Below are positions 28,697 through 50,538 of a DNA stretch of 50,596 nt, in pieces. The position numbers were made by a program, and so were the translations under genes. Source of the stretch: a virus (lineage: Duplodnaviria > Caudoviricetes); the IMG/VR virus record IMGVR_UViG_3300005663_000063, positions 1-50,596 of that record. One strand, written 5' to 3'. Below the pieces are notes generated by a model. The model was not told the DNA's origin, searched no databases, and worked only from the letters and a program-made list of their open reading frames with translations. Position 1 is the first letter of the stretch; every line of letters begins with the position of its first letter.

Positions 28697-30361
28697 TTAC
28701 CCCCTTGCTAATTCTTTTTCCCAATGTTCCCTTTCGGCTTTTAATTCCAGTACCCGCTCCATTATCTTAGACTTTTCATCGCTTTCCTCTTCAAAGTGAA
28801 CACTATCAATGCCTTCAACCTCTTCCAAGCCAAAGGATACGGTTTTTCTCATTAAGTTAGCTATTCCTACGGCTATGGGATAATCGTCATGTCCTGAAGG
28901 GCGAGCTTCTATCCTACCCTTTTTATCAGCGTTTTTTATCACAGACCCGAAGTGCTGTATGCCTAAAGGATTGAATAGAGTAATCTGGAAATTATTGATA
29001 GCAGGGATTAAGGCGGAGAATAAGTCCATTCTTGTCTTTTCGTCAGTTATAAAACCAGGCTTCTCTCTCTTAGCATCCCGATAGCCTAGATTCCTATAGT
29101 TGTTACTTTGGGCTATACCAACGACCCTTCTGCCGTATAAATTGTATTCAGGCCACCACTTCGGATTATTGAAAACATCTAATAGTTGAAGAGTCAGCAT
29201 AGCAAACATTTCCTCGTTAATCGTGTTGTCTAAAATATCAGCCACTACGACTCCCGTCCTGACATTCATAATCGCTGTTGCCTGATAATCCCGCCCAACT
29301 CCTAAAGAAATATCTGAACCCGCTATATAGAACTCTCCCAAGTGAAAGTCCCGATAGATATTTATGTAATTATAATCCAGTCCATCTTTTCCAACATGTA
29401 TAGTGGGTTGTTTTTCAGCTTCTTCGAGCATCTGCTTAAGAACATCCTTATTAAAGGCACTGACTGTCTGGGGAACAGATAGAGCCTCTTCTATGGAACG
29501 AGGATAGTTTTTAAGCATGTAAAGTTCGGGGGTAAGCCCACTTAACTCACCTTCGGGAATACTGTCCTTTACATCGCTGTACCACTTGTCGTCCCTGCCC
29601 TCCATCACACTATAAGGATAAAATAAGGGTGTCCAACCATTCTTCCCTTCTAATGCCCCTTCAAATAATTCGGTGGCAAGATTATCTTTATCCCAGGCGT
29701 TCTCTGTAAAACAGGAGATACACTGCCCTGCTTTATCAATTGTAGGTTTGGAATGGAGATAATTCTGTCTGGCGTATTCGTGTTCAGCATGTTCGTCCCA
29801 AACTATAATAGAAGCCGTAAAACCAATCCCAGCAGTCTCTGTGGAAGGTAATGCCCTGATAATACTCTGCATTACAGGAAAACTCATCTCTTCCCGACTA
29901 TCAAGACCTGCCTTCGGTCTTAAGAAAGCAGGTAACTGATTATAAATCCGCTTCGATTTATCCAGAAGTTCCCTTGCCTCTAACTGCCCTTTCGAATATA
30001 AAAGAACATTAGCCCCCTCATGAAAAATGGCATACCACAAAACATAAGTGGCAATCGTAGTGGAAAGTCCTATCTGACGAGCCTTTAAAACAGTCACAAA
30101 CCTCTTCTCAAGAAACTGTAAGAGGATTTGCTCAACATGATGAAACAACTGGAAGGGAATCAAGCCACCGCCAGAACTTGTAGGCGATGGAGCTTCTACT
30201 ATCTTACAATACCTCAAAAAGCGGAAGATGTTTTTCTGGCACAAAGTCCACTCATACTTAAGCATACCCCTGTCTTCAGGAGTATATGTCTCAATGGGCT
30301 TTAAGAGTATCTTATCTATCTTCTTATCGTGCTTTTGTAGAAAAGTCTCTACACCAGCCAT
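28697..30361 (-). CDS. terL: Terminase large subunit
   Basis: Walker A LKARQIGLST, Walker B IIVWDE, RNase H-like GSDISLG.G.D and HDD motifs. Confidence 0.93.
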   Translation of the reverse strand: MAGVETFLQKHDKKIDKILLKPIETYTPEDRGMLKYEWTLCQKNIFRFLRYCKIVEAPSPTSSGGGLIPFQLFHHVEQILLQFLEKRFVTVLKARQIGLSTTIATYVLWYAIFHEGANVLLYSKGQLEARELLDKSKRIYNQLPAFLRPKAGLDSREEMSFPVMQSIIRALPSTETAGIGFTASIIVWDEHAEHEYARQNYLHSKPTIDKAGQCISCFTENAWDKDNLATELFEGALEGKNGWTPLFYPYSVMEGRDDKWYSDVKDSIPEGELSGLTPELYMLKNYPRSIEEALSVPQTVSAFNKDVLKQMLEEAEKQPTIHVGKDGLDYNYINIYRDFHLGEFYIAGSDISLGVGRDYQATAIMNVRTGVVVADILDNTINEEMFAMLTLQLLDVFNNPKWWPEYNLYGRRVVGIAQSNNYRNLGYRDAKREKPGFITDEKTRMDLFSALIPAINNFQITLFNPLGIQHFGSVIKNADKKGRIEARPSGHDDYPIAVGIANLMRKTVSFGLEEVEGIDSVHFEEESDEKSKIMERVLELKAEREHWEKELARG

Positions 30362-31097
30362 ATATTGTCTCCCACGAATCAGGTTGGTCGAAATCACTCT
30401 CTAATGTCGTATTCGGATGTCCTATCTCCGCCTCTACAGGATTCACCAGACTTAAATCTACCCCTATGTAATTAGCAAAATGGTAAGCTATCCTGTCGTA
30501 AGTTAAGTCACTATCCCCCGAAACCTGCAATAGACCACCCATTCTATCCCTGCCTATCTTATAAAGTATGTCAGAAACAAAATGGACACTCATCGGGGAC
30601 ATCGACATGTTAGAATAAGGATATATTGTCCTCCCACCTTTTAAATCGGTAATCCATCCTTCAAACAAGGGTACATCATAACCTAAGACCTTCGAAAGTC
30701 TAATTACTGTCACACCCATATCCAGTAAAATCCTTTCTATGCCTGCCTTCTGCCTGCCATATTCAGTTGTTGGACAAACTGCATCATTAACATTGCGAGA
30801 GGCCTTAGAACCATCAAATACCCTCTCGGAAGACAACCACACTACAAAACCTTTTAACTTTTCGGCCAACCTAATAGTACCATCTACATTTATCCTCCTC
30901 GTTTCCTCAGGATATCGCTCACACTTCTCTGTAGACGTCTCGGCAGCACATATATACGCCACATCACTCTCAGGTAAATCCCAATCAGTACCATCAAGGC
31001 TAACAACATCACGACCAAGTATGACGGCATTACCCATCCTCCTTAAATAATAATAAAGATTCCTCCCTATTAAACCATTGCCTATTACTAAGTTCAT
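30324..31097 (-). CDS. RmlD-like NAD(P)-dependent nucleotide-sugar reductase (extended SDR)
   Basis: IGNGLIG, CAAET...CE..PE.T..INV.GT, LSSERVFDG, YGRQK. Confidence 0.88.
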   Translation of the reverse strand: MNLVIGNGLIGRNLYYYLRRMGNAVILGRDVVSLDGTDWDLPESDVAYICAAETSTEKCERYPEETRRINVDGTIRLAEKLKGFVVWLSSERVFDGSKASRNVNDAVCPTTEYGRQKAGIERILLDMGVTVIRLSKVLGYDVPLFEGWITDLKGGRTIYPYSNMSMSPMSVHFVSDILYKIGRDRMGGLLQVSGDSDLTYDRIAYHFANYIGVDLSLVNPVEAEIGHPNTTLESDFDQPDSWETIYGWCRDFSTKAR

Positions 31098-31107
31098 ACC
31101 AATGATT

Positions 31108-31272
31108 CTACGGCCACAACGAATCAACAATACGCCAAAAGCGATTGTTTATCTGGGTATCGTAGAATTTGACTAAATGGTCTATTAATGTGAACTTTCT
31201 CATTATATCCTCCCTTGCTGCAGTTTGCGGTGATTTACCTTGAAGCATTTGCATTATCGTCCTTAACATCAT
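31108..31272 (-). CDS. Hypothetical protein
   Basis: ATGA-coupled to the upstream ORF. Confidence 0.5.
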   Translation of the reverse strand: MMLRTIMQMLQGKSPQTAAREDIMRKFTLIDHLVKFYDTQINNRFWRIVDSLWP

Positions 31273-31478
31273 TCCTTCTCTATCAATGGCTTTACTATCC
31301 AATAACCTGTATATATGTTGTGTTCTTCTACCTTTATCACTACACCTTGAGAGTGCAGATACTCAACAATCTTAAAGGAAAATTCCTCTGATTGGTTATG
31401 CTTATCAAGTAAATCCCTATTGTTTTCCAGGGCATACAATAAACCCCTTATCCCTTCCCTTATCTCTTCTCTAGTCAT
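31269..31478 (-). CDS. Small 'TREEIREGI...LHSQGVVIKV' family protein, paralog of 43846..44139
   Basis: Shared N-terminal, central and C-terminal motifs. Confidence 0.75.
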   Translation of the reverse strand: MTREEIREGIRGLLYALENNRDLLDKHNQSEEFSFKIVEYLHSQGVVIKVEEHNIYTGYWIVKPLIEKE

Positions 31479-37407: not shown

Positions 37408-37647
37408 ATGGCTAAAAAAGGACTCTATAAAAAGTATATTGTCACCAAAACTAGTGGGAAGCCAATCCCACCTGAAGCACAATTCATTGTTCTCCGTGTT
37501 GATGCAGGGCAATATGTTGGGGCTTGCAGAACAGGAGTAGCAGCCTTCGCTAAAGCAGTTGAGCCGCTAAACCACAATTTATCTTGGGATATACAGATGT
37601 TGTTATTAGGGTTAGTCGCAAAGGATATAAGGGAAGGTGGAGAATAA
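37408..37647 (+). CDS. Hypothetical phage protein
   Basis: AGGAGG RBS; GLYKKYIV.K..G.P...FIVLR.D motif. Confidence 0.7.
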   Translation: MAKKGLYKKYIVTKTSGKPIPPEAQFIVLRVDAGQYVGACRTGVAAFAKAVEPLNHNLSWDIQMLLLGLVAKDIREGGE

Positions 37648-38534
37648 TGGCTAAGAAAAGACAGGTCATACCTCTTGGCAAGAAAAGAAAGTTGACACCA
37701 GAGAGAGCTATTGAGTTATTAGATACAGCGAAAGAGGGATTTCCTGCCAACGATACCGAGAAATACTATCTTGCTATGGAGCTAGGTATTGAAGCCTTGA
37801 AAGTCCAACTAGCCAAGAGCCAAGAGGTATGCCCTGAGTGTCACGGGGAAGGGAAACACGCCTATGCTGGAACAACAGTTGATATATATGTGGGTACTTG
37901 TATTACCTGTCAAGGAACAGGCAAAGTCTTATCCGACACAAGAACTGCCTCTCGCTCCTCACCTCAATTTCATAGTGTCGGAGCTATATGTCCCACCTGT
38001 CAAGGTAAGAAGCACTATATCGCCCCTTTCGGAAAAGTGCCTGACGGTACAGGTAAGAGGCTGGATATAGCACTAGACAATGTAGAGAGGATGGGGCATT
38101 TTGGGGTAGTCAGAGATTGGACTATCAACCTTAAAGATGGAATGGAGGTTTTACTTAATGCTAGGGTTATTCAAGAAATAATTAAGCACGAAAATGCCGA
38201 GCAAAGGCTGGATAGACCCAAAATTATATGCCTTTGTGGTTCCACCCGCTTTGTGGCTATATTCAACGAGTGGCGACAGAAGTTAACACTAGAAGGTAAG
38301 ATTGTAGTCTCCATAGAATTAGTGTTGCCCCAATCTGAAAGGGAAGACCCTCAGCATAGTAATTACAAAGTGAAACAGGCACTTGATGAACTTCACTTGC
38401 GGAAAATTGACCTTGCCGATGAGGTAATGATACTAAATGTTGGTGGTTACATCGGCGAATCTACCAGAAATGAATTGAATTATGCTATGCAAATAGGCAA
38501 GACAATTACTTACTTGGAGGAACAAGATGGATAG
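37647..38534 (+). CDS. Modular protein: DnaJ-type CxxCxGxG repeats plus a C-terminal nucleoside 2-deoxyribosyltransferase-like domain
   Basis: CPECHGEG, CITCQGTG, CPTCQG; IICLCGSTRF...LHLRKIDLADEV.ILNVGGYIGESTRNE..YA. Confidence 0.7.
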   Translation: MAKKRQVIPLGKKRKLTPERAIELLDTAKEGFPANDTEKYYLAMELGIEALKVQLAKSQEVCPECHGEGKHAYAGTTVDIYVGTCITCQGTGKVLSDTRTASRSSPQFHSVGAICPTCQGKKHYIAPFGKVPDGTGKRLDIALDNVERMGHFGVVRDWTINLKDGMEVLLNARVIQEIIKHENAEQRLDRPKIICLCGSTRFVAIFNEWRQKLTLEGKIVVSIELVLPQSEREDPQHSNYKVKQALDELHLRKIDLADEVMILNVGGYIGESTRNELNYAMQIGKTITYLEEQDG

Positions 38535-39006
38535 ACCTGATAGGGAGAAGATAGCGACCTATGAGAAGATATGTCTGTCCTTTTGCATTAGAAACTCTGA
38601 TAAGGCACAAGTGGCAGGGATATTCAAAGAAATCCTAGCTCTCTTACCTGAACCTATAGATAGCCCTAAGCTGAGGGAGAAGATAAACCAGATTTTACAC
38701 CAATACATTATCCGCAATCTTTATGAAACTACTATTATAAGCGAAGGGTTGGTAACTGACCAAATCCTAGCCATTTGTGAGGAAGAGATAGGGAAGCACT
38801 ATAGTCCTGACTGCCCACAATGCTATGAAAACCTTCTTGAAAGTGGAGTTATTAAACAAGCCAAGCGTGAGGAGAGGAAGAGGATAATGAGGGAACTCGG
38901 AAATTATGCTTTTGCTGAGGCTCAACACATACCACAGTCGGGGCGAGAACCTGTTATTATTTGTTTAACCGAAGCTGATTTGCAAGCACTTCGAGGTGAG
39001 GAATGA
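38527..39006 (+). CDS. Hypothetical protein with an internal 44-codon repeat
   Basis: DRPDREKI...ILA / DSPKLREKI...ILA. Confidence 0.7.
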   Translation: MDRPDREKIATYEKICLSFCIRNSDKAQVAGIFKEILALLPEPIDSPKLREKINQILHQYIIRNLYETTIISEGLVTDQILAICEEEIGKHYSPDCPQCYENLLESGVIKQAKREERKRIMRELGNYAFAEAQHIPQSGREPVIICLTEADLQALRGEE

Positions 39007-39215
39007 AAGCGGGAGATAGAGTTAGGAACATATATTCAGGTAAAGCTGGTGTTGTGATTAAGGTGTGGGATGGCAAATATACAGTATCATATTATAAAGG
39101 GGAGCAATACAACCCTTACAGGATAACGGTAGAGTTAGACCATCAACCCCATGCAGCCCTTGACTCTTATATCCGTACCTTCAAAGCTGAACACTTAGAG
39201 GTAAGTGAAAAATGA
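39003..39215 (+). CDS. Small SH3/KOW-like protein
   Basis: MKAGDRVR...G.VIKV...HLE pattern. Confidence 0.6.
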   Translation: MKAGDRVRNIYSGKAGVVIKVWDGKYTVSYYKGEQYNPYRITVELDHQPHAALDSYIRTFKAEHLEVSEK

Positions 39216-39394
39216 TAACAACATGGGAAGAACTGGGTGAAGTTTTGGCTGAGTTTGAGAACCGCATCTCTTTATTAGAGAACTCTCTACCTTCCCATTC
39301 ACAGGAAGTAAGGGGAGTTAACTTAGAGCCAATTGTAAAAATCGTAAGGCATGTTTATGCAAGTAAAAAGAAAGAGGAAGGTCTTTATGAATAA
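39212..39394 (+). CDS. Hypothetical protein
   Basis: GAGGT RBS; ATGA coupling. Confidence 0.6.
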   Translation: MITTWEELGEVLAEFENRISLLENSLPSHSQEVRGVNLEPIVKIVRHVYASKKKEEGLYE

Positions 39395-39419
39395 GATAAT
39401 ATATGGAGGGTGGGGATAG

Positions 39420-39566
39420 ATGAAATGTTGTGTGTGCGGATGTAGTTCAACAAAAGAAAACCCCATGATAAAAGACCCTGACCCATACGAGTCGGAAATA
39501 AACAATGATGAAACAGAGGTGTGGGAATGCGAACAGTGTAGGGATGATTCAGCAATGGATATTTAG
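39420..39566 (+). CDS. 48-aa zinc-finger-like protein (not in the ORF track)
   Basis: MKCCVCGC...DPYESEINNDETEVWECEQCRDDSAMDI. Confidence 0.65.
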   Translation: MKCCVCGCSSTKENPMIKDPDPYESEINNDETEVWECEQCRDDSAMDI

Positions 39567-39594
39567 GCAATGAAGTAGAGAGTGAAGAGCTATG

Positions 39595-39700
39595 ATTGTT
39601 CTAAGTTGTTCTGTTTGTTCCACTCTAGGCGTGAATATACCATTTCTTGTTCTAATCTGTGTTGTGTGTTCCTCTTGTTCTCTTTGTTCTGTCTGTTCTA
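39595..39700. repeat. TGTTC iteron tract, putative replication origin
   Basis: TGTTC at 39597, 39607, 39616, 39648, 39667, 39676, 39685 and 39694, mostly at 9-10 bp spacing, directly upstream of the helicase-like gene. Confidence 0.6.
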
Positions 39701-39709
39701 GGAGTGGAT

Positions 39710-40597
39710 ATGGATTTAACTAAGGAAGCACTAAGGGCTTGGTGGATACAGACCACAGGTGAGAATCACTATAAGGCAGCCCTTGATGGGGATTTTAAGG
39801 TAAAGGATACTTTCTTTTATGACAAACTGCGTAAGTTAACCTTTGAGCTTGTGGCGGATAAAGTTATAACAAAGGTTCGCACCAAGAAGGATGGGATATA
39901 CCGCCTAGTGGATAAGGCAGATGAGGAGATAATGTGGTGGGAAGGGGAAGGCATAGATGATAGTAAGGTTAATCTCTTATTACCATTTGGATTGCATAAG
40001 GCAGTCTATGTACCACGCCCCGCCCTCATTCTTATATCGGGTGATACAAACGCTGGCAAGACAGCTATCGCCAATCAGATACTAAATATCAACCAAGAGA
40101 AGTTTGATGATATTCTGTTATTAATGACTGAGGGTTTGGATATGGTAAAGGGTAGGATGATGAACGCTATACCGAAATGTCCTATGCCACCCAAGTTCCG
40201 CACCTTCAGGAAGATGAACCACTTTGAGGATGACGTGCTTCCCAACGGGTTAACAGTAGTAGATTATCTAAGACCACCCAACCCTACATCCTTAATGTCT
40301 ATTGGCGAACCCTTAGAAGCAATTGCGGGAGTATTAAATAAGGGTACAGGGATAGCTGTAGTATGCCTTCAGAAGCCACGAGGCGAACGAGGGGAGGCTT
40401 TCGGGGGTATAATCACTCAATGGGACGCCTCTTTGGCTATGAGCATCCATACTACCGATACAAACTTCGTAAGCTATCTAAAACTCAATAAGATTAAGAA
40501 GCCCCTTATGTTGGATAAGGATTTATACAAGCTCAAGATACGGTTTAAAATATCACATGGAATACAACTGACAGAACTGGAGAAGGTTTATGAATAA
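39710..40597 (+). CDS. RecA/DnaB-like P-loop ATPase (putative replicative helicase) with an N-terminal winged-helix-like region
   Basis: Walker A GDTNAGKT, Walker B LTVVDYL, VCLQK; AGGAG RBS before MDLTKE. Confidence 0.75.
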   Translation: MDLTKEALRAWWIQTTGENHYKAALDGDFKVKDTFFYDKLRKLTFELVADKVITKVRTKKDGIYRLVDKADEEIMWWEGEGIDDSKVNLLLPFGLHKAVYVPRPALILISGDTNAGKTAIANQILNINQEKFDDILLLMTEGLDMVKGRMMNAIPKCPMPPKFRTFRKMNHFEDDVLPNGLTVVDYLRPPNPTSLMSIGEPLEAIAGVLNKGTGIAVVCLQKPRGERGEAFGGIITQWDASLAMSIHTTDTNFVSYLKLNKIKKPLMLDKDLYKLKIRFKISHGIQLTELEKVYE

Positions 40598-40621
40598 GAT
40601 AATATATGCTGAAAGGAGGGA

Positions 40622-40900
40622 ATGATGCCTATTGCCATTGTGGAAGAAATAATTATAGCTTTTTGTTCGCTGGTAATGATAACAGCAATTATGGTTGTTA
40701 TCTACTTTGGGCTAAAGGGGCTAAATATAGCTTGCCGATTAGGTCATCACCAACCTAGCCTTAGCGAAATGAGTTATAACTTTGAGACTAGAGAGATAAG
40801 TGTTCATTGTAAGGTCTGTCAGAAGGTAGTATATAAGGTTAAATCTGAAGACCAACTCACCGATAAGCAGTGGCTTGGGTTTAAGCAGATATTTGAATAG
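40622..40900 (+). CDS. Small protein with an N-terminal TM and C..GH / CxxC motif
   Basis: AGGAGG RBS; hydrophobic N-terminus; CRLGHH, CKVC. Confidence 0.65.
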   Translation: MMPIAIVEEIIIAFCSLVMITAIMVVIYFGLKGLNIACRLGHHQPSLSEMSYNFETREISVHCKVCQKVVYKVKSEDQLTDKQWLGFKQIFE

Positions 40901-40923
40901 CGTAGGCAATGAAGTAGAGAGTT

Positions 40924-41262
40924 ATGAAGATAAAGATTGACCCGCTGGATAAGCTAGTAGCCAAATATATTAAGTTAAGGGATAAATGGTGTCAGCGGTG
41001 TAGTGGCACAAGCGGTCTGCAAACTGCTCACTTTCATTCACGGCGGAAGCGGAGTGTGCGATACGATGAGGATAATCTGTGCCTTCTTTGCTTTGGCTGC
41101 CATAGTTACCTTGATGGCAACCCCTTAGAGAAAGTGGAATTCTTTAAGCAGAGACTAGGGGATAGGTTCGACTTCTTGGTAGCTAGGGCTAACAGGCCAG
41201 CCAAGCCAGATAAATCAGCAATCGCTTTATACCTGAAAGAACGAATAAAGGAGATGGAATGA
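40924..41262 (+). CDS. NinG/Rap-like HNH-fold recombination endonuclease
   Basis: LDKLVAKYIKLRD..CQRC, AHFHSR...RYDEDN...LC.GCH. Confidence 0.8.
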   Translation: MKIKIDPLDKLVAKYIKLRDKWCQRCSGTSGLQTAHFHSRRKRSVRYDEDNLCLLCFGCHSYLDGNPLEKVEFFKQRLGDRFDFLVARANRPAKPDKSAIALYLKERIKEME

Positions 41263-41408
41263 AGTATAAAATTACCATGCAAGTATTGATGCTCCTTTGG
41301 GGGATATGCCTAATGACTATACCTGCCTTTGAAGAGATTGGTGGTTATATCTTAGGCACTATCTGGATAGTGGGCAGTATCATTGTTGGTGCTATCCCTA
41401 ATAAATAA
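41259..41408 (+). CDS. Small two-TM protein (not in the ORF track)
   Basis: MKYKITMQVLMLLWGICLMTIPAFEEIGGYILGTIWIVGSIIVGAIPNK; ATGA coupling. Confidence 0.6.
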   Translation: MKYKITMQVLMLLWGICLMTIPAFEEIGGYILGTIWIVGSIIVGAIPNK

Positions 41409-41422
41409 CGGAGATGGAATAG

Positions 41423-42274
41423 ATGGCTGAAGAAGAACTAATACTTAGTGGAGAACCGATATATTATTCTCATACGCTCAACCCTAAATTCAAGGGCTTA
41501 ATCATAGCCCCTATATCTGATGTGCATTACGGCAACCCCCTCTTCTCCAAGAAGCACTTTCTACAGACAGTAAAATACTTAAAGGATACACCGAATGCTT
41601 ATACGCTTTTAAATGGGGATATGTGCGAGTCAACCATTAAGACCTCAAAGGGTGAGATTTTCAAACAAGTCGGCTCTCCGCAAGACCAGAGGGATTGGAT
41701 AATAGACCAACTAGAACCTATCAAAAAGAAGATACTCGGAATGACTATCGGCAACCACGAAATGAGGATTTACAATGAGGTTGGTATAGATATATGTAAA
41801 GACATTGCCAAAGCCCTCGGTGTGCCATACAGGGCGTCTGGTATGCTACTGAAGATAGCCTTCGGGGACTGGAACAGGAGTGTAGATGGGAAACCGTTTG
41901 TCTACTGGGGTTACTTCTCTCATGGATATGGTGGGGCTAGAACTAAGTCGGCTAAAGCAGTGAAAGTTGAGCGAGTAGCCACTTGGATACATGCTGATTT
42001 CTACTGCCTGTCGCATGACCATGTAGTGAATGCTGCCCCTGATATTTACTTATTACCAGACCCTAGAACTCGTGCTGAGAAGGATGCCGATGGTAAGGAA
42101 ACGGGTTTTACTGTGGGTAGACTAACCGCACATAGAAAGATGCTGGTTAAGACCAATGCTTATTTGAAATGGGGTGGCTATGCAGAGATGTTGGGCTTTC
42201 CGCCCAGTGATTTAACTACACCTTTAATCAAACTGTTTGGAACGGGTAAACCAACTGTAAGGGTAGAAGTATAG
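41423..42274 (+). CDS. Calcineurin-like metallophosphoesterase
   Basis: SDVHYG, NGD, GNHE, HG and SHDH motifs. Confidence 0.9.
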   Translation: MAEEELILSGEPIYYSHTLNPKFKGLIIAPISDVHYGNPLFSKKHFLQTVKYLKDTPNAYTLLNGDMCESTIKTSKGEIFKQVGSPQDQRDWIIDQLEPIKKKILGMTIGNHEMRIYNEVGIDICKDIAKALGVPYRASGMLLKIAFGDWNRSVDGKPFVYWGYFSHGYGGARTKSAKAVKVERVATWIHADFYCLSHDHVVNAAPDIYLLPDPRTRAEKDADGKETGFTVGRLTAHRKMLVKTNAYLKWGGYAEMLGFPPSDLTTPLIKLFGTGKPTVRVEV

Positions 42275-42514: not shown

Positions 42515-42534
42515 TATGAATGGAGGTGATTATT

Positions 42535-43167
42535 ATGCCACAAATAGGTGATACCAAAAGAGCCAGGGAGATAGGAAAGTGGTTTAAGAAAGGCACAGGA
42601 AGTAAGGGGACTAAATATATCTGGTATGCTTGCGAGGATTGCGGTAGGGAGCGCTGGGTAGCAGTAGTGAAAGGTAAACCTAGTTACTTGTTTTGTAGAT
42701 ACTGTGTTCGTAAGGGCAAACGCTTTGACGATGTATTAAGAAAGAAACTTTCTCTATGTAATTCTGGGGCTAATAATAGGCGTTGGAAGGGGGGGCGGAG
42801 TGGAACCACTTCTGGTTACATAATGGTTAAAGTTCATCCTGATGACTTCTTCCTCCCTATGGCAACTAAGGATTGCTATATAATGGAGCATCGCCTTGTT
42901 ATGGCAAAACATCTCAATCGTTGCCTTTTACCGTGGGAGATTGTTCATCACAAGAATGGAATTAGAGATGACAATAGATTGGAGAATTTGGAATTATTAC
43001 CCACGAACAAACAACATGCTCCATCAATGAAATGGCAAGCGGAAATATTAAAACGTGATAATCAGATAATTGAATTGAAAAATGAAATAGCGGAATTACA
43101 ATTATATCTAGGAGAAGAACTTGCTTGCGATATTGAGAAAATAAAGAGAATAAAGGCAGGGAAATAG
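42535..43167 (+). CDS. Free-standing HNH homing endonuclease with an N-terminal Zn ribbon
   Basis: EHRLVMAKHL.R.L..WEIVHHKNGIRDDNRLENL; WKGG; GGAGGTG RBS and TGnTATAAT upstream. Confidence 0.9.
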   Translation: MPQIGDTKRAREIGKWFKKGTGSKGTKYIWYACEDCGRERWVAVVKGKPSYLFCRYCVRKGKRFDDVLRKKLSLCNSGANNRRWKGGRSGTTSGYIMVKVHPDDFFLPMATKDCYIMEHRLVMAKHLNRCLLPWEIVHHKNGIRDDNRLENLELLPTNKQHAPSMKWQAEILKRDNQIIELKNEIAELQLYLGEELACDIEKIKRIKAGK

Positions 43168-43357: not shown

Positions 43358-43671
43358 AAGTTAAGATACCAAGAGAGATTAAGATAGCAGGACACTGGTT
43401 TGCTATTGGATATGAAGAGGGACTCGCTTCTAGGCACCATAAATATGGGTTTGTCAGTACTGATACCCTTGTAATCCATGTAGAACCGACAATTCCCGAT
43501 TCATTGAAATCACAAACCTTACTCCATGAACTTGTGCATACACTGAGCGACCAGTTCATTTGTGCAAATGCCTTCTCAGAAGAAGTGGTGGGGCAAATAG
43601 CAACGGGTATTTGGGTAATGCTTTCAGATTTGGGTATTGAGTTTGACTGGTCAGAGATAAAGGAGGAATGA
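43354..43671 (+). CDS. HExxH zinc metallopeptidase-like phage protein
   Basis: TLLHELVH...E motif; GGAGG RBS. Confidence 0.75.
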   Translation: MKVKIPREIKIAGHWFAIGYEEGLASRHHKYGFVSTDTLVIHVEPTIPDSLKSQTLLHELVHTLSDQFICANAFSEEVVGQIATGIWVMLSDLGIEFDWSEIKEE

Positions 43672-43856
43672 TGACTAGAGAAGAGATAAGAGCAGATAGA
43701 GAGTTAGAGTTAGGTAACTACCAAGAATTCAGTTCAGTAGATGCGCTATTGGGGGACTTACATTCTTGCAGTTACATTTCGTGTCCTCTTTGCGGGTGTG
43801 TATTCTATCCAGAGACGGCGAGTTCCGTCTGTTGTGGGGTAAATAATGCCAACTAG
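43668..43856 (+). CDS. Small Cys-rich protein sharing its N-terminus (TREEIR) with the downstream gene
   Basis: AGGAGG RBS; CPLCG...CC. Confidence 0.55.
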   Translation: MMTREEIRADRELELGNYQEFSSVDALLGDLHSCSYISCPLCGCVFYPETASSVCCGVNNAN

Positions 43857-44139
43857 AGAAGAGATAAGGGAAGGGATAGCTAGAACTTATTTCAGTCATC
43901 GGTTTGCGGGTGATGTTTCCTTTGATGAGGTTAGTGATGAATGCTATGCCTTCGCAGATGTTGATATGGCAAATCTCCACTCTCAAGGTGTAGTAATCAA
44001 GGTGAAGGGGGAGTTGCCTCAGGTTGAGATTACTTACACGGGTTGGCTTACACCCTCTCAAATTACAGAGATAGGTGCTGCTTATCGCAAGGCTTATGCT
44101 GGCTTCGGAGCTTTTGAGCCATTGATAAAGGAGAAGTAA
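43846..44139 (+). CDS. 'TREEIREGI...LHSQGVVIKV' family protein, paralog of 31269..31478
   Basis: Shared motifs. Confidence 0.75.
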   Translation: MPTREEIREGIARTYFSHRFAGDVSFDEVSDECYAFADVDMANLHSQGVVIKVKGELPQVEITYTGWLTPSQITEIGAAYRKAYAGFGAFEPLIKEK

Positions 44140-44348
44140 TGCTCTGGTATCTTTCAGCCTTAGCCTTAATGTCTTACCCAATAGCGGAACTCAGTAGGGT
44201 TATAGTTATAGTGATAGTACGCTATCCCAATATCGCTATTGGAGCAGGGGAAGTTCCTCAGTCCGACTTTGTATGGGAGATTATATTGATGTGGATAGCT
44301 TACATTGTAGGAGCTGCTATACTAGCTTGGAGATTAAACAAAAAATGA
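44139..44348 (+). CDS. Small membrane protein
   Basis: Two hydrophobic segments; coupled to both neighbours. Confidence 0.6.
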   Translation: MLWYLSALALMSYPIAELSRVIVIVIVRYPNIAIGAGEVPQSDFVWEIILMWIAYIVGAAILAWRLNKK

Positions 44349-45709
44349 AACCAGTGTATTTCTTCAATCCGTCCTACGATGAGAGGAATATAAACTTCTA
44401 CAACCTCGGACTGATTAGTATTGCCTCTCATCTAAAAAGGAAGGGTATCCCTGCCTATGTTTATATGAACTACCTAGACGAAAGGCATACCAAGGACAAA
44501 GATTATGACCTTGTGTTGGAAGATGTATTAAAGGAGAACCCACAATATGTAGGGATTTCTTGTATGACAACACAATATATGGGGGCATTGGATTTAACCA
44601 AGAGGATTAAGGGGCTATCTGATGTTCCCGTTGTATGGGGCGGGCATCATGTTAATGCTTATGGGTGCAATGGGGCTGACTTAGGGGTAAGGGGTTGGGG
44701 GGAATTTAATGCAGAGAGGATTTATAATAATGCCCCACTATTTGTAAAGCGTGGAATACCAGCGAACCTTCCCCTAGATTTCTCTACTGTTATCAACTAT
44801 CAACCAGTAGAACGCCTGATGAGAGGCAGGATGGTCAAGCAGGCATCTATAATGACCTCTTATGGGTGTCCATATAAGTGCAGGTTCTGTGTTAATGCAA
44901 TAAAGGATAGCCAAGTTATCTATCGGGATATAAAGGCAGTGGTTCAAGAGATAAAGCAAGTCCTGAGTATGGGTGCTAACTCCATAGCTTTTTATGATGA
45001 GCTGTTCTGGGCAAAGCCTAAAAGGGTGGTTGACATAATAAAAAACCTAAAAGTTGAGGGTTTTAATTTTCCATGGTTGGCACTTGCAAGGATTGATAGT
45101 AGGCTGGAGGACTTAAAATATCTGGCAAGCAACGGTTGTGAGGAGATACACTTTGGAGTGGAGTCAGGCTCTCAGAGAATGATAGATGAGTGTATCAACA
45201 AGAGGATTAAGATAAAGGATGTTATCCCTGTTCTGCAAAGAGTATTGGATGCAGACATTATGCCCAGGGCTTCGTTCATATTTGGTATGCCTGGGGAGAC
45301 AATGGATGATGTATCACAAACCATTCACCTGATAATGGAAATGGCAGAGAGGTTTGGTAATCGGTTCGTGATAAACGCTTTCTTCTTCTATCCTATACCC
45401 AACACTCCTATGACAGACGAGGCGTTTAAAGGATTGAGTGCTCAGGATTGTATTGATGCAGCAAGACTCTCAGTCCATCCCTATAAACTCTTTGAACACT
45501 TTGATGCATATGACTGGTTGCCTGATAAGAAGTTCTTTGCTGAGTGTTGGTATATAGCAAGGGTTATCTCAGAGATATGTGCTCCTTATAAATATTACGA
45601 AGGTTATAAGCCAGAGTTCGGGGGGATGTCAGTATCTGATGGGACTTATAATGAATTGAATAATAGTGAACTAGCAAAGAAATGGCTAGATAAAGTAAGG
45701 GGGTTTTGA
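44345..45709 (+). CDS. B12-binding radical SAM protein (class B methyltransferase-like)
   Basis: LGLISIA, YVGISCMT, VVWGGHH, TSYGCPYKCRFC, GVESGSQR, GMPGET. Confidence 0.92.
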   Translation: MKPVYFFNPSYDERNINFYNLGLISIASHLKRKGIPAYVYMNYLDERHTKDKDYDLVLEDVLKENPQYVGISCMTTQYMGALDLTKRIKGLSDVPVVWGGHHVNAYGCNGADLGVRGWGEFNAERIYNNAPLFVKRGIPANLPLDFSTVINYQPVERLMRGRMVKQASIMTSYGCPYKCRFCVNAIKDSQVIYRDIKAVVQEIKQVLSMGANSIAFYDELFWAKPKRVVDIIKNLKVEGFNFPWLALARIDSRLEDLKYLASNGCEEIHFGVESGSQRMIDECINKRIKIKDVIPVLQRVLDADIMPRASFIFGMPGETMDDVSQTIHLIMEMAERFGNRFVINAFFFYPIPNTPMTDEAFKGLSAQDCIDAARLSVHPYKLFEHFDAYDWLPDKKFFAECWYIARVISEICAPYKYYEGYKPEFGGMSVSDGTYNELNNSELAKKWLDKVRGF

Positions 45710-46074
45710 TGAAGATAGTAAATAAACCTTGGGGATATGAGAAATGGCTACACGAAGGAAAGTATGTTCTCAAAGAGATATTTATTAAGAAAGGATTTAA
45801 GACAAGCCTTCAATACCACAAAAAGAAAACTGAAACAAACTATATCATAAGGGGGAAGGCAAAGCTCCAATGGTCTATAGTCGGTTACGAAATTAAGAAG
45901 AAGGGAGACTACTTCCATGTGAACCCAAATGAGGCTCATAGAGTAGAAGCACTTACTGACCTCCTTATGATTGAGGCATCTACACCAGAAGTGGATGATA
46001 TTGTAAGGCTAGAGGACGACTATGACAGAGGGAATGGGAGGATAGATAGTGAGCACGAAGAAGATAATAAATAA
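45706..46074 (+). CDS. Cupin (mannose-6-phosphate isomerase type II-like)
   Basis: KPWG, SLQYHKKKTE, HRVEA, STPEVDD.VRL.DDY.R. Confidence 0.85.
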   Translation: MMKIVNKPWGYEKWLHEGKYVLKEIFIKKGFKTSLQYHKKKTETNYIIRGKAKLQWSIVGYEIKKKGDYFHVNPNEAHRVEALTDLLMIEASTPEVDDIVRLEDDYDRGNGRIDSEHEEDNK

Positions 46075-46300
46075 AAGGAGGGGGAAAATAACTGATGTTG
46101 AGAAATCTGAAAGGTTAAGGATAAAATGCCTCATTGTATGGGGCATCATAGGCATCTTGATGCTAATTTCATTTGTAGTATTTAATAGCTTTCTTGAGGG
46201 CAAGTCTATGCGTGAATTTCCTGCTAACGTTGCTGGTGCTTTTCTAATGCTTTGGATGCTTACAGGTATTGGATTATCAGGTGGTGGGGGGGGTATGTAA
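46049..46300 (+). CDS. Small two-TM membrane protein
   Basis: Hydrophobic segments; lies between sugar enzymes. Confidence 0.55.
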   Translation: MSTKKIINKRRGKITDVEKSERLRIKCLIVWGIIGILMLISFVVFNSFLEGKSMREFPANVAGAFLMLWMLTGIGLSGGGGGM

Positions 46301-46304
46301 TAAT

Positions 46305-47894
46305 ATGAATAAATTAGCTATTCTTGTAACAGGAACATATAGAGAGATAGACTTCCTGTTGGATGTCTTTCCACAGATAACTAAAGGGATAGACCACGAC
46401 ATTTATGTTGTTTTAAGGCATACCGCTGGAGAGTTAAGTAGGCTTGGGTTAAAGGAACAGGACTTCACCCTTCCGAAAGGTGGGGATAATGTCTTTATGT
46501 GTGAGTTACCCAGTATGGATAAAGATGAAGCCCACTCTCGTTACCTGATACCAGTTGGGCCGACAGATAACGATAGGGAATGTGCTATGCTCAGTATGTT
46601 TCATGGAGTGTTCACTGCCATCTCTATGATGAAAGCCTCTCTTAGAAATTACACCTATGTTATGAAGACACGGACAGATTATCTCCCCCCAATGTCTATA
46701 CCTGAGATGATTGAGGCTCACACAAAGACGGGGAAGATTATCGTTGATGGGTGTGCTAACTGGCACCATCGCTACCCCGATAGGGGCGATATTCATTGGC
46801 AAGGTTCGTTGAATGATATATTTTGCTTTACCACCTATGATGGGTTTCTTAAACTGTGGGATTTTGAGGACGAACTCAGCAAGTATTGGACAGGCATACC
46901 AGAAACGACTCTATTCAGGGTGGCTATGAAAAGGTTTCTGGGTGATGAGATGCAGTCCCCTCGCAAGAACGAGACTTTCCTGAAGAAGTATTTTACTTGG
47001 GATGATAATGATACCAAGCAATCCTTCCACGTTCTAAGAAGAAAAGGGGATGGGTTGCCCAAGATGGGTGAGGCAACCTTTTTCAAGGGGGATGAGGTTG
47101 TTAAATACTTCGTCGATAAAGAGAAGGTTAAGGGTAGAGTAGAACGTGCTATACTATTGAGCGGGTTTGTCCCTGAACCAGTAAAAGTATCGGATAACTT
47201 TTTTACCTACAAGTATGTAGGGGGGAAGTTGCTTTCAGATACGGATGTGGATACCTTTACCGAGTTCCTTGAGTTTATGAAGAGGAATATATGGGTTGGC
47301 AATTACCACAGTATCAGGAAAGCCTGTGAAGAGTTTTACATTACTAAGACAGATGAGCGCATTAAATTATTTAGGGAAAAGACTGGGATTATAGATAAAA
47401 AGGAGGATATTAACGGTGTAGAAGTACCCTCCATAGAAGATACGCTGGAAAACATAGATTTGAAGTGGCTGTGTGATGGGATACCCGCCATCATACACGG
47501 AGACCCACAACCAGAGAATGTGATTGTAACTGAGGATGGGTTTTCTCTACTAGATTGGCGTGAGGACTTTGGGGGACTACCCTATGGTGATGTCTATTAT
47601 GATTTAGCCAAGATTTACCACGCCCTCTGGGTAGCAGGGGAGATAATCCGCCAAGAGAGATACACTATTAAGGAAGACCCCATAGAATATACCATAGATT
47701 TCAAAGATAACCTAATGGAGTTCAAGGATGTGATGGAGAAGTTTATCGCAGATAATGGATATGACCTATACAAAGTTAAAGTCTTATCAGCACTCATTTA
47801 TCTAAACATAGCACCCTTACATCACGAACCTTACAATAAATTCCTTTACTACTTTGGGAAGAAATATCTTTATGAGTTACTGGAGGAGAAATGA
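46305..47894 (+). CDS. Fusion of an N-terminal GT-like domain and a C-terminal APH/choline kinase-like phosphotransferase
   Basis: LAILVTG..R and YVMKTRTDY in the N-half; IHGDPQPEN, LLDWR, GDVYYDLAK in the C-half. Confidence 0.72.
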   Translation: MNKLAILVTGTYREIDFLLDVFPQITKGIDHDIYVVLRHTAGELSRLGLKEQDFTLPKGGDNVFMCELPSMDKDEAHSRYLIPVGPTDNDRECAMLSMFHGVFTAISMMKASLRNYTYVMKTRTDYLPPMSIPEMIEAHTKTGKIIVDGCANWHHRYPDRGDIHWQGSLNDIFCFTTYDGFLKLWDFEDELSKYWTGIPETTLFRVAMKRFLGDEMQSPRKNETFLKKYFTWDDNDTKQSFHVLRRKGDGLPKMGEATFFKGDEVVKYFVDKEKVKGRVERAILLSGFVPEPVKVSDNFFTYKYVGGKLLSDTDVDTFTEFLEFMKRNIWVGNYHSIRKACEEFYITKTDERIKLFREKTGIIDKKEDINGVEVPSIEDTLENIDLKWLCDGIPAIIHGDPQPENVIVTEDGFSLLDWREDFGGLPYGDVYYDLAKIYHALWVAGEIIRQERYTIKEDPIEYTIDFKDNLMEFKDVMEKFIADNGYDLYKVKVLSALIYLNIAPLHHEPYNKFLYYFGKKYLYELLEEK

Positions 47895-48124
47895 GGGAAA
47901 TGAACCATCGGCGTTTAGGAAGGCTTGTGCTAGTTGTTACCTTGATTGGTTTCTTTTGCTGGCTTGGTAATATCTGGGTCAACAAACTAGAACCAGATAT
48001 TACATTAGCGCAGGAGATATTGGGCAGTATTGTTTTTGGTACGACGATAGCATTTGCGACCACCCTTTTGATAAGTGTACTTTACATCCTCTATGATTGG
48101 CTATACTCCAAGGAGGAGAAATGA
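47891..48124 (+). CDS. Small two-TM membrane protein
   Basis: Two hydrophobic helices; ATGA-coupled at both ends. Confidence 0.65.
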   Translation: MREMNHRRLGRLVLVVTLIGFFCWLGNIWVNKLEPDITLAQEILGSIVFGTTIAFATTLLISVLYILYDWLYSKEEK

Positions 48125-48630
48125 AATTGGATTATTCTCAAGAGTTAGCCTCATGTTGTGGAAATGAAACTGAAATGAAAACATTTGTAATAGATGTAGA
48201 TGGTTGTATGACTGATGGGAGGATGTACTACACCGCAGAAGGTAAGCAGATGAAAGCCTTTGGAGCTGATGACCACGATGCGCTGAATATGTTAAAGGAG
48301 TTTATTAAGATACACTTTGTCACTGGCGACCATATAGGATTTGACATTTCTGCAAGGCGTATTGCCACAGATATGGATTTTAATATATGGCTAGTAGAGG
48401 TGGAAAACCGCACCAACTGGATAAAGGAAAATTTTGGCTTATCAAAAACAATCTATATGGGCGATGGCATACTTGACCCACCTATCTTTGAGAAGGTAGG
48501 GTATAGTATCTGTCCTGCTGATGGGTTTTATCTGGCCAGAGAAAAGGCTGACTTTGTAACACAATCAGGGGGAGGACACCGTGCCGTAGCAGAAGCCTGT
48601 ATGCACATTAAGGAGAAGTTCTTTGTATAA
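48121..48630 (+). CDS. KdsC-like HAD sugar-phosphate phosphatase
   Basis: IDVDGCMTDG, K.F...D, YMGDG..D, GG..AVAE. Confidence 0.88.
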   Translation: MKLDYSQELASCCGNETEMKTFVIDVDGCMTDGRMYYTAEGKQMKAFGADDHDALNMLKEFIKIHFVTGDHIGFDISARRIATDMDFNIWLVEVENRTNWIKENFGLSKTIYMGDGILDPPIFEKVGYSICPADGFYLAREKADFVTQSGGGHRAVAEACMHIKEKFFV

Positions 48631-49303
48631 AGTATGTATCCTGACAGCGGGTATGGGAACACGGAATAAGTATGCCAAGGATACTAATAAAGCTTGTCTT
48701 CCCATAGGGGGTAAGCCTGCCATCTCCCGTATGATTGATAAATTCCCAGAAGATGTTGAAATTGTTATCGCAGTTGGGCATAAGGCGGAGTTGGTAATAA
48801 ATGTTGTGATGTCCTCATACCTCGGTAGACCTAACCTAATATATATGCACGTTAATTATCAGGGGGAAGGTAGGGGTCCAGGATATTCGTTACTTCAATG
48901 TAGACCCTTCCTGCAATGCCCGTTTATTTACACTTGTTGCGATACTCTTGTTCTTGAGGATATTCCCGAACCAAAGGTGAACTGGATGGGGGTATCTCTC
49001 GTAACAGAGAAATTACCCTATCTAACCGCTGATGTTGAAGATGGATTGATAAATAAAGTTTATGATAAGGGGGATAAAAATGCTACATATCTAGCTTCTA
49101 TAGGTCTGGTCGGAGTAAGGGACTATAAAGCCTTCTGGGAAGGATTAGCTAACCCGACAATAGTTGAGGGAGAACACCAGGACACTTCGGGAATAAACGC
49201 CCTTATTCCCTTATACCCAGAATACTTTACTTGGTTTGATACAGGAAGTACGGAGGGTTATGAAAATGCAAACAGATACTTTAGTAAACAGATACCTAAA
49301 TGA
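48623..49303 (+). CDS. Sugar-phosphate nucleotidyltransferase
   Basis: ILTAGMGTR......NKACLPI, CCD, WFDTG. Confidence 0.88.
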   Translation: MYKVCILTAGMGTRNKYAKDTNKACLPIGGKPAISRMIDKFPEDVEIVIAVGHKAELVINVVMSSYLGRPNLIYMHVNYQGEGRGPGYSLLQCRPFLQCPFIYTCCDTLVLEDIPEPKVNWMGVSLVTEKLPYLTADVEDGLINKVYDKGDKNATYLASIGLVGVRDYKAFWEGLANPTIVEGEHQDTSGINALIPLYPEYFTWFDTGSTEGYENANRYFSKQIPK

Positions 49304-49898
49304 ACACGTAAGTATAGCACAAGGGTTTCCTGTCCTTGATGTGATTGAATTTTTTGATTTGGTAGAAAACACATATAAGATGAACGGTGAGGTGTTTGTC
49401 TTTGGGAATGGTGGTGGGGCAAGTATAGCTGAACACTTTGCTAGTGACTTAAAGATGCACCCATTTGTATCTGATGACAAGCACAAGCCGACAGATACTC
49501 ATAGGTTGAGGGTTCACTGCCTCAATGAGTCTAATGGGATAATCACACGCATAGGTAATGATATTGGGTACTATCACATCTTTATTGAGCAACTTAAAAA
49601 CTATGACCTTAATGAGCTTGCCTTAGTAGTAGCTTTCTCTGGGAGTGGTAATTCCCTCAATATTATTAAGGCTCTTCAGTATGCAAATGATTGTGATGCC
49701 ATAACTGTCCTTATCGGCGGGCGTGACGGTGGGAAGGCTAAAGACTTAGCTGACCTTTGTATCTTAATCCCAGGCACTTCTAAGTTCCCAGGTCAGGTTG
49801 GAGCTAACGATAACTGTTTCCACATTGAGGACTTTCAGTGTAGTATAACCCATATAGTAACAGGTCTATTAAAGGAGGCAGTAGATGAGGGAAATTGA
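49236..49898 (+). CDS. SIS-domain phosphosugar isomerase, GmhA-like
   Basis: FGNGGGASIAEHFASD, GND.GY..IF, SGSGNS.N, DGGK, IED. Confidence 0.88.
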   Translation: MIQEVRRVMKMQTDTLVNRYLNEHVSIAQGFPVLDVIEFFDLVENTYKMNGEVFVFGNGGGASIAEHFASDLKMHPFVSDDKHKPTDTHRLRVHCLNESNGIITRIGNDIGYYHIFIEQLKNYDLNELALVVAFSGSGNSLNIIKALQYANDCDAITVLIGGRDGGKAKDLADLCILIPGTSKFPGQVGANDNCFHIEDFQCSITHIVTGLLKEAVDEGN

Positions 49899-50538
49899 AT
49901 TAGTTACCCCACTGCACAAGCAGACAAAGAGAAACTATCTAGCTAGAATGAATGACGACAAGGTTCACTGTATGCTCAAGGCTAAAGAGTATGGGTATGA
50001 TTACTGGGATGGGGACCGAAGATACGGATATGGAGGGTATAAATATGATGGAAGATGGAAACCAATCGCTGAAAAACTTATTGAGACATATGGACTTAAG
50101 TTTGGAGACTTGGTTTTGGATGCTGGGTGTGGGAAAGGGCATCTCTTATACGAGCTTCAAGAACTGGGTATGCGAGTTAAAGGGTTTGATATTTCTCACC
50201 ATGCGTTAGTAAACGCCCCCGCAGAAGTTCGGACTTCTGTAGGCATTATGAAGGCACAAGACTATTATCCTTGTCCCGACAAATACTATGATTTAGTAAT
50301 CTCTCTGGGGTGTCTTCATAACTTGCGCATCTTCGACTTAGAAAGAGCTATTAAAGAGATAGAAAGGGTGGGCAAACAGAAGTATATTATGGTGGAGAGT
50401 TGCCGCAACGAACAGGAGTTATTTAATTTGCAATGTTGGGCTTTGACGGCGGAGTCATTCTTTGATAGGGATGAATGGGTATGGTTGTATAAACACTTTG
50501 GATATACAGGGGATTATGTATTTGTTTATTTTGAATAA
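49885..50538 (+). CDS. Class I SAM-dependent methyltransferase
   Basis: DYWDGDRRYGYGGY, VLDAGCGKG, GFDIS, DLVIS..CLHNL. Confidence 0.9.
   Translation: MREIELVTPLHKQTKRNYLARMNDDKVHCMLKAKEYGYDYWDGDRRYGYGGYKYDGRWKPIAEKLIETYGLKFGDLVLDAGCGKGHLLYELQELGMRVKGFDISHHALVNAPAEVRTSVGIMKAQDYYPCPDKYYDLVISLGCLHNLRIFDLERAIKEIERVGKQKYIMVESCRNEQELFNLQCWALTAESFFDRDEWVWLYKHFGYTGDYVFVYFE

Follow-up and report, generated by a model that had tools for sequence, protein, structure and literature searches.

The window analyzed here, the complete IMG/VR virus record IMGVR_UViG_3300005663_000063 (50,596 nucleotides, nt), corresponds to a ~50-kb phage with direct terminal repeats (DTR; 77 nt), which encodes a large terminase and is organized into structural genes on the minus strand and an early region of small open reading frames (ORFs) on the plus strand. 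On the plus strand we examined two gene slots, each bounded by the same pair of short direct repeats, R1 on the left and R2 on the right, and each enclosing a different small ORF, hereafter the cargo (Table 1). Comparison with other viral contigs indicates that the repeats are the remaining ends of an MT-A70 adenine methyltransferase (MTase) gene. The window is thereby predicted to hold two emptied "shells" of this gene, one before an iteron-like tract and an ATPase gene and the other before a NinG-like gene, and no intact MT-A70.

A first-pass annotation, made from the sequence alone, had described both repeats as exact and as more than simple ribosome-binding motifs, with the YE-stop of the upstream gene inside each R1. 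Exactness and position were confirmed by a mismatch scan: R1 (22 nt) occurs at 39384-39405 and 40587-40608, with no additional copy at up to 3 mismatches, and R2 (20 nt) at 39564-39583 and 40903-40922. None of 100 dinucleotide-preserving shuffles for either repeat contained two or more matches. The TAA stop of both upstream ORFs (39212-39394 and 39659/39710-40597, each ending ...YE) lies within R1, the first of these being a 60-aa ORF. Direct comparison of the two left arms, R1a and R1b, extends their similarity ~10 nt further upstream with one indel, and R1a corresponds to R1b without six bases (CTGAAA), after which it runs into GGAGGG. The right arm R2a retains 12 additional MTase-derived bases, up to an ATGA stop/start overlap, while the NinG-like start codon lies one base beyond R2b. 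The R1 and R2 arms are mutually unrelated, are not inverted and show no terminal inverted repeats. The two cargo ORFs were likewise confirmed to be unrelated to each other, and neither belongs to a Pfam or PHROG family. Mis-assembly of the repeats was rejected because a single 23,707-nt contig from a public run, possibly the source sample and so not fully independent, reproduces positions 38900-41400 with 0 differences.

Table 1. Elements of the two shells and of the adjoining resident genes, in window coordinates.
Element	Position	Strand	Remarks
R1a, left arm of shell 1	39374..39410	+	Ribosome-binding site (RBS) region; predicted former MT-A70 ATG at 39387 and first codons; Shine-Dalgarno (SD) GGAGGG
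Cargo 1, 48-aa Cys-rich (Zn-ribbon-like) ORF	39420..39566	+	TAG stop formed by the first three bases of R2a
R2a and tail, right arm of shell 1	39564..39595	+	Predicted last MT-A70 codons GNEVES-EEL*; ATGA overlap; nhmmer E 2e-5
Iteron-like tract	39596..39700	+	5 exact TTGTTCT and 8 TGTTCY; upstream of ATPase gene
Resident 295-aa RecA-fold P-loop ATPase (DnaB_C/AAA_25/KaiC-like), putative	39710..40597	+	Stop inside R1b
R1b, left arm of shell 2	40578..40620	+	RBS region; predicted former MT-A70 ATG at 40590 and codons to GCTGA; SD AAAGGAGGG; nhmmer E 1.9e-7
Cargo 2, 92-aa ORF	40622..40900	+	N-terminal hydrophobic helix; Cys/His pairs
R2b, right arm of shell 2	40903..40922	+	Predicted MT-A70 3' codons; nhmmer E 8.5e-5
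Resident NinG/Rap-like HNH endonuclease gene	40924..41262	+	phrog_5034, E 2.8e-13

Relationship of the arms to an MT-A70 methyltransferase gene

Sequences resembling the arms recur together in other viral contigs. At locus L001 (genome G001), R2 is followed 20 nt on by the 3' part of R1 and then by a sequence identical to the one downstream of R1b in the window. Moreover, a 23-nt word spanning R1b and its SD was found in five viral contigs, and in genomes G002 and G003/G005 this word precedes a gene, which is then followed by R2. At locus L057, an intact 183-aa ORF opens with MKKYQIIYADPPW, matching the little ORF within R1 (MKKYQIIYAERR...), and carries R2 in frame close to its end, as WGNEVESDI. 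This ORF encodes an MT-A70 adenine methyltransferase of full length, aligned to the Pfam model at positions 1-172 of 172 (E 5.2e-29). Nucleotide alignment places R1 collinear with the first 29 nt of the MT-A70 gene (MKKYQIIYA…), and the two sequences agree in register as far as GCTGA. Beyond this point the shells read AAGGAGG and the intact gene the codons for DPPW. The R1 core joined to DPPW codons was identified at 67 viral loci, 64 of them possessing complete MT-A70-type ORFs. For example, the intact gene of L306 matches the R1 consensus at 29 of 29 positions and R2 at 17 of 18 (18 of 18 in L314), and its C-terminus reads ...WGNEVESDIEL*, with the TGA overlapping the next ATG (ATGA).

Searches with the intact protein returned a complementary pattern. 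Against six genomes, tblastn recovered residues 1-10 and ~164-178 only, in G001, G002 and G003/G005, and in the window neither tblastn nor an additional search found anything credible of an MT-A70 protein, including its catalytic core and DPPW motif. What the window retains of the gene amounts to ~9 N-terminal and 7-10 C-terminal codons, in two copies; taken generally, R1 reaches into the first ~9 codons and R2 spans the last ~7-12 together with the stop, which overlaps the ATG of the next gene. Because the arms are collinear with the two ends of the intact gene, and because tblastn finds these ends alone, the alignments show R1 and R2 to be, at the level of sequence, the retained 5' and 3' ends of an MT-A70 (N6-adenine) DNA MTase gene that lacks its interior. 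The arms are therefore fossils of a gene and not purpose-built or integron-like sites.

Intact MT-A70 genes were better conserved at their ends than in their interior (71-85% and 36-64% identity, respectively), a difference which was set aside because the ends had served as search keys. Two bacterial matches to the R1 core, in a Clostridia metagenome-assembled genome and in Lachnospiraceae, were judged to be chance or unrelated, as they have no MTase-start context and share a different downstream sequence. As a separate observation, several ORFs at locus L011 share the opening MKKYQIYAD and then turn into other proteins, including a C5-methylase-like one, so that the MTase N-terminus can also be fused in frame to cargo.

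The window copies of the arms are themselves distinctive. TATCAG, two consensus codons, is missing from both R1 copies, and R1a lacks a further six bases; in each R2 copy, TAGGC replaces the TGGGGC seen elsewhere and the tail is shortened. The exact 22-nt R1 has 0 matches in viral contigs, and the short R1 variant of the window was absent from all other fetched loci. The window copies are closer to one another than to copies elsewhere, which suggests that the arms were duplicated or underwent gene conversion within the lineage of the window. Searching the window with nhmmer yielded no degenerate extra shells beyond the four arms, bar one R2-like match at 15232-15253(-) (3/18 mismatches, E 0.011) within a 327-aa minus-strand ORF, which may represent chance or an old remnant.

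Across the loci compared, the two arms differ in content. The left arm comprises the stop of the upstream gene, the RBS and start codon of the former MTase, a short relic ORF and a terminal SD, AAAGGAGG. In the window, the relic ORF of R1a (39387-39419) ends directly before the cargo ATG and that of R1b (40590-40625) overlaps it (ATGA); across the contexts surveyed, the stop of the relic ORF falls on or adjoins the cargo ATG in 31/81. The relic ORF is not obligatory, however, because the former MTase start codon is kept in only 38 of 86 unique contexts and lost in the remaining 48. The distance from SD to cargo ATG is 5 nt in 21/36 cases. The right arm, read directly, closes every reading frame within 33 nt and terminates with an ATGA restart. 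More than half of the cargo ORFs (22/38) end on a stop belonging to R2 itself, either TGA at +8 (14) or TAG at +13 (8), and a few read in frame into the old MTase tail. The first-pass view of the repeats as more than simple RBS motifs holds. The left junction is the same in all cassettes, fixed at the SD, whereas the right junction varies, with 0-6 nt of extra MTase sequence in 47/49 units and 15 nt in the other 2. Uniform left and variable right junctions would fit one founder shell into which cargo entered many times.

No other signal was detected at the arms in searches for sigma-70-like promoters, terminator-like sites, stable or consistent folds, and palindromes, inverted repeats or attC-like folds at R1 and R2. 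Promoter-like sites numbered 7 in 38500-41500, compared to 7.3 expected from shuffles, and folding z-scores were -1.0, 0.05, +1.3, -2.9 (only -6 kcal/mol) and 0.5.

Cargo diversity and breakpoints between relatives

To tabulate cargo, R1 and R2 were searched in viral metagenomes. The exact 21-nt R1 core was found in 91 metagenome contigs from about 19 record prefixes, with R2 (up to 3 mismatches) downstream at 40/93 R1-core sites within the fetched DNA, a lower bound given that many loci are short. A looser 15-nt R2 word occurs at at least 117 viral loci; among the matches listed, 16 have the full 18-mer and 8 a same-strand R1-like word. Pooling these sources resulted in 49 distinct R1...R2 units, of which 38 enclose a single ORF. 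Shells also occur in tandem: an R2 tail lies within 60 nt upstream of R1 in 11/87 contexts, with L001 and L084 as further cases. Exact words of R1 or R2 served as seeds for the census, gene calls were simple ORF calls, and contigs derive mostly from a limited set of metagenome records, the runs of the window itself being labelled marine sediment.

Together with cargo 1 of the window, the 38 single ORFs gave 39 cargos of 48-262 aa (median 90), which fell into 39 singleton clusters (blastp, E<1e-5), although short cargos may hide distant relationships and many loci are truncated. A Pfam family was assigned to 9 of the 36 cargos scanned, including an N6_N4 DNA methylase (G002), a Dam-type methylase, an RlaP nucleotidyltransferase, a helix-turn-helix protein and zinc ribbons. 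Another of the nine strongly matches Tad6 (Pfam, E 2.7e-59), which the cited account describes as a ThsB-binding inhibitor of Thoeris (PMC13728456). The other 27/36, being without a family, are reasonable candidates for counter-defence functions. Upon closer inspection, the 114-aa cargo of L238 was found to share 49% identity with the C-terminal domain of a 316-aa protein encoded in the window at 37584-38534, where the cargo-type gene is fused to an N-terminal DnaJ-type CXXCXGXG zinc finger. Cargo genes therefore exist outside shells as well. Overall, the first-pass proposal that cargo is exchangeable between fixed arms gains support from R1-gene-R2 units which enclose unrelated genes, in the same polarity, in many phage contigs, and relatives clearly do not always show the same cargo and layout.

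The genes adjoining the shells provide further indications of exchange. In the window, G003 and G002, the gene directly after R2 is NinG-like and the preceding cargo is the 92-aa ORF, a 210-aa ORF and a 245-aa DNA methylase, respectively; R2 also directly precedes NinG-like homologues or analogues in L081 and L119. Similarly, the shell upstream of the RecA-fold ATPase holds the 48-aa cargo in the window and a 64-aa cargo in G003. An allelic series was identified among three loci with a common downstream gene, which has a sub-threshold match to NinB: L306 carries an intact MT-A70, L200 a Dam-type gene between R1 and R2, and L088 four ORFs between R1 and R2. L306 and L088 share 76% nt identity over 263 nt beginning exactly at R2, and L200 and L088 88% over 260 nt from R2 onward, with matching R1 regions and unrelated intervening DNA. 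Arms are identical between genomes in which the adjacent ATPase and NinG-like proteins are ~34% identical (window versus G003) and in which even the best-conserved shared structural genes reach 65-75% nt identity. Among 50 cassettes, 4 pairs with unrelated cargo share the right flank only and 2 such pairs the left flank only (70-86% nt identity). Contigs from the window's own samples match the arms only and diverge on both sides, and potential exchange partners therefore co-occur with the phage. As judged from these alignments, the breakpoints between relatives are shown to coincide with the arms, as are the diversity of cargo, the allelic series and the absence of the gene interior.

A low-depth contig from run X3 additionally joins an R2b-like end (40892-40921), 39 other letters and an R1b-like start (40588-40627). 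This R2-spacer-R1 junction lies in a different genome from the sample, whose arms closely resemble the window variant.

Iteron tract, ATPase gene and other features of the window

Between the two slots, the first-pass annotation had placed an iteron tract and a helicase. The repeat cluster was recovered: the stretch from R2a to the ATPase gene contains 5 of the window's 10 exact copies of TTGTTCT, packed into 95 nt, and 8 copies of TGTTCY. The tract is covered by a 43-aa ORF (39592-39723), which starts from the ATGA overlap and may be coding. At the equivalent position of G003 (L144; minus strand), directly upstream of a 290-aa ATPase gene, ATACAA is repeated 7 times in ~90 nt. The 295-aa protein annotated as a helicase has no sequence match in Pfam, PHROGs or PDB; in the ESM Atlas it resembles viral RecA-fold ATPases of the DnaB_C/AAA_25/KaiC type, a lead only. 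Homologues are encoded in G003 (34% identity) and G002 (24% over the full length, E 1e-18). It is reasonable to regard tract and gene as iterons with a replicative ATPase, putatively a replicative helicase or initiator. For the resident ATPase, the NinG-like gene and cargo 2, close relatives were not confirmed in viral contigs, and a phage GenBank collection gave no match.

Several other features of the window were noted. An auxiliary metabolic gene set is distributed over 325-4163, 26931-28316(-), 30324-31130(-) and 44273-50538, and comprises a split transketolase, a PfkB kinase, a radical-SAM/SPASM protein, two B12-binding radical-SAM proteins and a cupin/mannose-6-P-isomerase-like protein, as well as an APH-like kinase, HAD, NTP-transferase and SIS proteins, a SAM methyltransferase and an RmlD-like reductase. 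This set looks like a sugar-nucleotide or modified-sugar pathway, of unusual size for a 50-kb phage. A perfect 27-nt inverted repeat (31449-31475 / 43852-43878) links gene blocks of both strands, and a direct repeat (43667-43695 / 43845-43873) corresponds to the shared 'TREEIREG' N-termini of small ORFs, an N-terminus also present in a cargo of L211 and in an ORF of G002. Finally, two adjacent ORFs of ~254 aa (16201-16965 and 16976-17737, minus strand) were identified as tandem paralogues with 65% nt identity over 789 nt.

Mechanism, rival explanations and known systems

The arrangement is best explained, with a probability of roughly 0.7, by a hollowed MT-A70 gene shell in which cargo is swapped by homologous recombination at the arms. 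In a founder event, ~480 nt of MT-A70 interior would have been replaced by an SD (AAAGGAGG) and a foreign ORF. The resulting shell would be directional and bipartite, with the upstream stop, relic ORF and SD in its left arm and stops and a downstream restart in its right arm. Because the arms supply stops, SD and restart, cargo might be tolerated in the early operon with its neighbours undisturbed. Many related phages of one habitat carry either the intact gene or a shell, such that arms of ~30-45 nt could supply the matching sequence for general or phage recombination among genomes that co-infect a cell. Possible consequences include swaps of cargo, tandem arrays of shells and reshuffling of neighbouring modules. 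New cargo may enter on the left through crossover in the ubiquitous SD, and on the right through joins, short or illegitimate, in the vicinity of the W-G-N-E codons. The most economical mechanism appears to be homologous recombination that involves no dedicated recombinase, because no integrase, transposase or serine recombinase was found by Pfam and/or PHROGs among 72 window ORFs, a scan that took in ORFs of <75 aa only within 33-44 kb. The arms probably also matter for expression.

A number of observations weigh against this reading. None of the 50 cassettes (0/50) falls in a pair sharing both flanks with different cargo, and hence no recent, clean double-crossover replacement was caught. 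No recombination protein of the single-strand annealing type (Erf, RecT, Sak or similar) was recognised among the scanned ORFs of the window. The arms also decay, as seen in the 6 nt missing from R1a, the shortened tails of both window R2 copies and a former start codon surviving in 38/86 contexts, which speaks against strong functional constraint as the means by which their identity is maintained. Furthermore, 39 cargos behind one left junction are much for rare illegitimate capture alone. Lastly, conservation of the arms within the census is partly built in because exact R1 or R2 words seeded it, and sampling is not independent because few metagenome records supply most contigs.

Some of the same features could be accounted for if the arms were kept for translation, through coupling of a relic leader ORF and SD on the left and stop and restart in R2 on the right, with cargo arriving by ordinary illegitimate recombination. 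Such a constraint would fit the relic ORF stops that overlap or abut the cargo ATG (31/81), the 5-nt spacing from SD to ATG (21/36), the three-frame stops with ATGA restart in R2 and the use of R2 stops by 22/38 cargos. However, the former start codon is lost in 48/86 contexts, the window arms carry deletions, and mosaic breakpoints lie exactly at the arms, as expected if crossovers happen there. We consider this explanation unlikely, noting that it is compatible with, and not exclusive of, exchange by homologous recombination. Quite improbable, in our assessment, is a dedicated mobility system, integron- or IS607-like, in which a site-specific recombinase, a homing-type nuclease (e.g. a NinG-like or HNH protein) or a transposase recognises the ends of the MTase gene. 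An identical left junction in all cassettes and 39/39 unrelated cargos might be expected of such a system, as might the HNH/NinG-like gene directly after R2 in the window, G002, G003, L081 and L119, and a second HNH gene at 42520-43167. Conversely, the 72 ORFs scanned include no integrase, serine recombinase or transposase, the arms have no inverted repeats, palindromes or attC-like folds, right junctions are heterogeneous, and most census cassettes do not adjoin NinG. In addition, NinG/Rap is a structure-specific nuclease and is not known to be sequence-specific.

The first-pass annotation had also suggested that recombination of R1 with R1 or of R2 with R2 would excise a circle of 1.2-1.3 kb containing origin and helicase, making the replication module swappable. 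The iteron tract and ATPase gene are indeed bracketed by direct repeats (20-22 nt, longer if gaps are allowed), the ATPase and NinG modules stand in opposite orders in the window and in G003, and mini-circles of a comparable kind are documented, in the account cited, for T4-type phages (PMC2839356). Nevertheless, the predicted joints (39405 to 40609 and 39583 to 40923) occur in no contig of three runs, although contigs drop rare variants and cannot show rare forms. Excision would also cost the phage what is probably its only replicative ATPase, and identity among the ATPases encoded by the window, G003 and G002 is just 24-34%, meaning that any module swap would be ancient. Two shells inserted at two gene boundaries provide a simpler explanation, and we regard the circle as very improbable; the proposal stands unsupported, which falls short of disproof. 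The reversed order in G003 is compatible with old arm-mediated reshuffling.

Returning to the hollowed gene with exchange by homologous recombination at its arms, a more general version may be put forward tentatively, with somewhat less than an even chance of being correct. The MT-A70 shell would constitute a recombinase-free cassette system, serving as a universal directional dock for counter-defence or early accessory genes in a large group of uncultured sediment phages. Mosaic junctions are ubiquitous in phages, and yet the short sequences that enable homologous recombination there are almost never visible. Here, the arms are explicit, have a nameable origin as two ends of one gene and surround dozens of unrelated genes as the same pair. 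The shell may thus offer a concrete, testable example of accessory-gene swapping without a dedicated mobility enzyme, and of a route from a widespread gene to a landing pad. The present cargos already include other DNA methylases and a Thoeris inhibitor, so that the arms offer a practical search key. If the general version is true, the original occupant would itself have been an anti-restriction methylase, and with the two short arms hundreds of new anti-defence candidates could be retrieved from metagenomic data.

In the open-access literature searched, we found no description of MTase-gene remnants as cassette arms. The shell lacks the defining features of several known systems, namely promoter-early stem-loop (PeSL) motifs, integron cassettes, morons and transposons. 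As in integrons (attC/attI, IntI), diverse promoterless single-gene cassettes share one orientation and sometimes form tandem arrays; unlike integrons, no integrase was found among the 72 ORFs scanned, attC-like imperfect palindromes are missing and the arms derive from a coding gene. Terminal inverted repeats at the arms and a transposase among the ORFs scanned, as would be expected for transposons or miniature inverted-repeat elements, were not found. Morons, characterized as promoter-ORF-terminator insertions in phage genomes (as cited in PMC3029335), resemble the cassettes in being extra accessory genes between resident genes of related phages. By that description they carry their own promoter and terminator, neither of which was found here, where cargo is embedded in an operon by translational overlaps.

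A closer parallel is provided by the PeSL motifs of T4-type phages, which are reported to mediate modular shuffling and to form mini-circles (Arbiol et al. 2010, PMC2839356; Comeau et al. 2014, PMC4122927). In these accounts, short conserved sequences likewise surround small, mostly unknown, non-essential genes in plastic early regions, and recombination between copies explains insertions, deletions and replacements among related phages; each motif, too, holds an upstream stop, an SD and a downstream start. As with PeSLs, a repeated motif here surrounds variable ORFs, and breakpoints between relatives fall at the motif. A PeSL, as described there, is a single composite motif with a sigma-70 promoter and a stem-loop terminator, whereas the shell has two different directional arms, from the ends of a coding gene, with no promoter and no stem-loop. 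The shell resides in a ~50-kb DTR phage that is not T4-like, and mini-circles have been demonstrated for PeSLs but not here. With respect to the MT-A70 phage adenine methyltransferases (Pfam PF05063), the window encodes no such protein and retains end codons only, though the arms are nucleotide-level remnants of the gene and intact alleles occupy the same site elsewhere.

The primary papers on boundary-sequence mosaicism are reportedly those of Susskind and Botstein and of Clark et al. Short conserved boundary, or 'linker', sequences have been proposed to account for mosaicism in lambdoid phages (as cited in PMC3029335), where homologous recombination at short gene-boundary sequences would give rise to mosaic junctions. 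Consistent with this model, the arms are conserved far above their surroundings, lie at gene boundaries and coincide with mosaic junctions, and their neighbourhood resembles a nin region, with NinG and a weak NinB-like match. The shells differ from linkers in that the sequences are explicit, have an identifiable MT-A70 origin and form an ordered pair, which encloses unrelated cargo in at least 49 distinct units.

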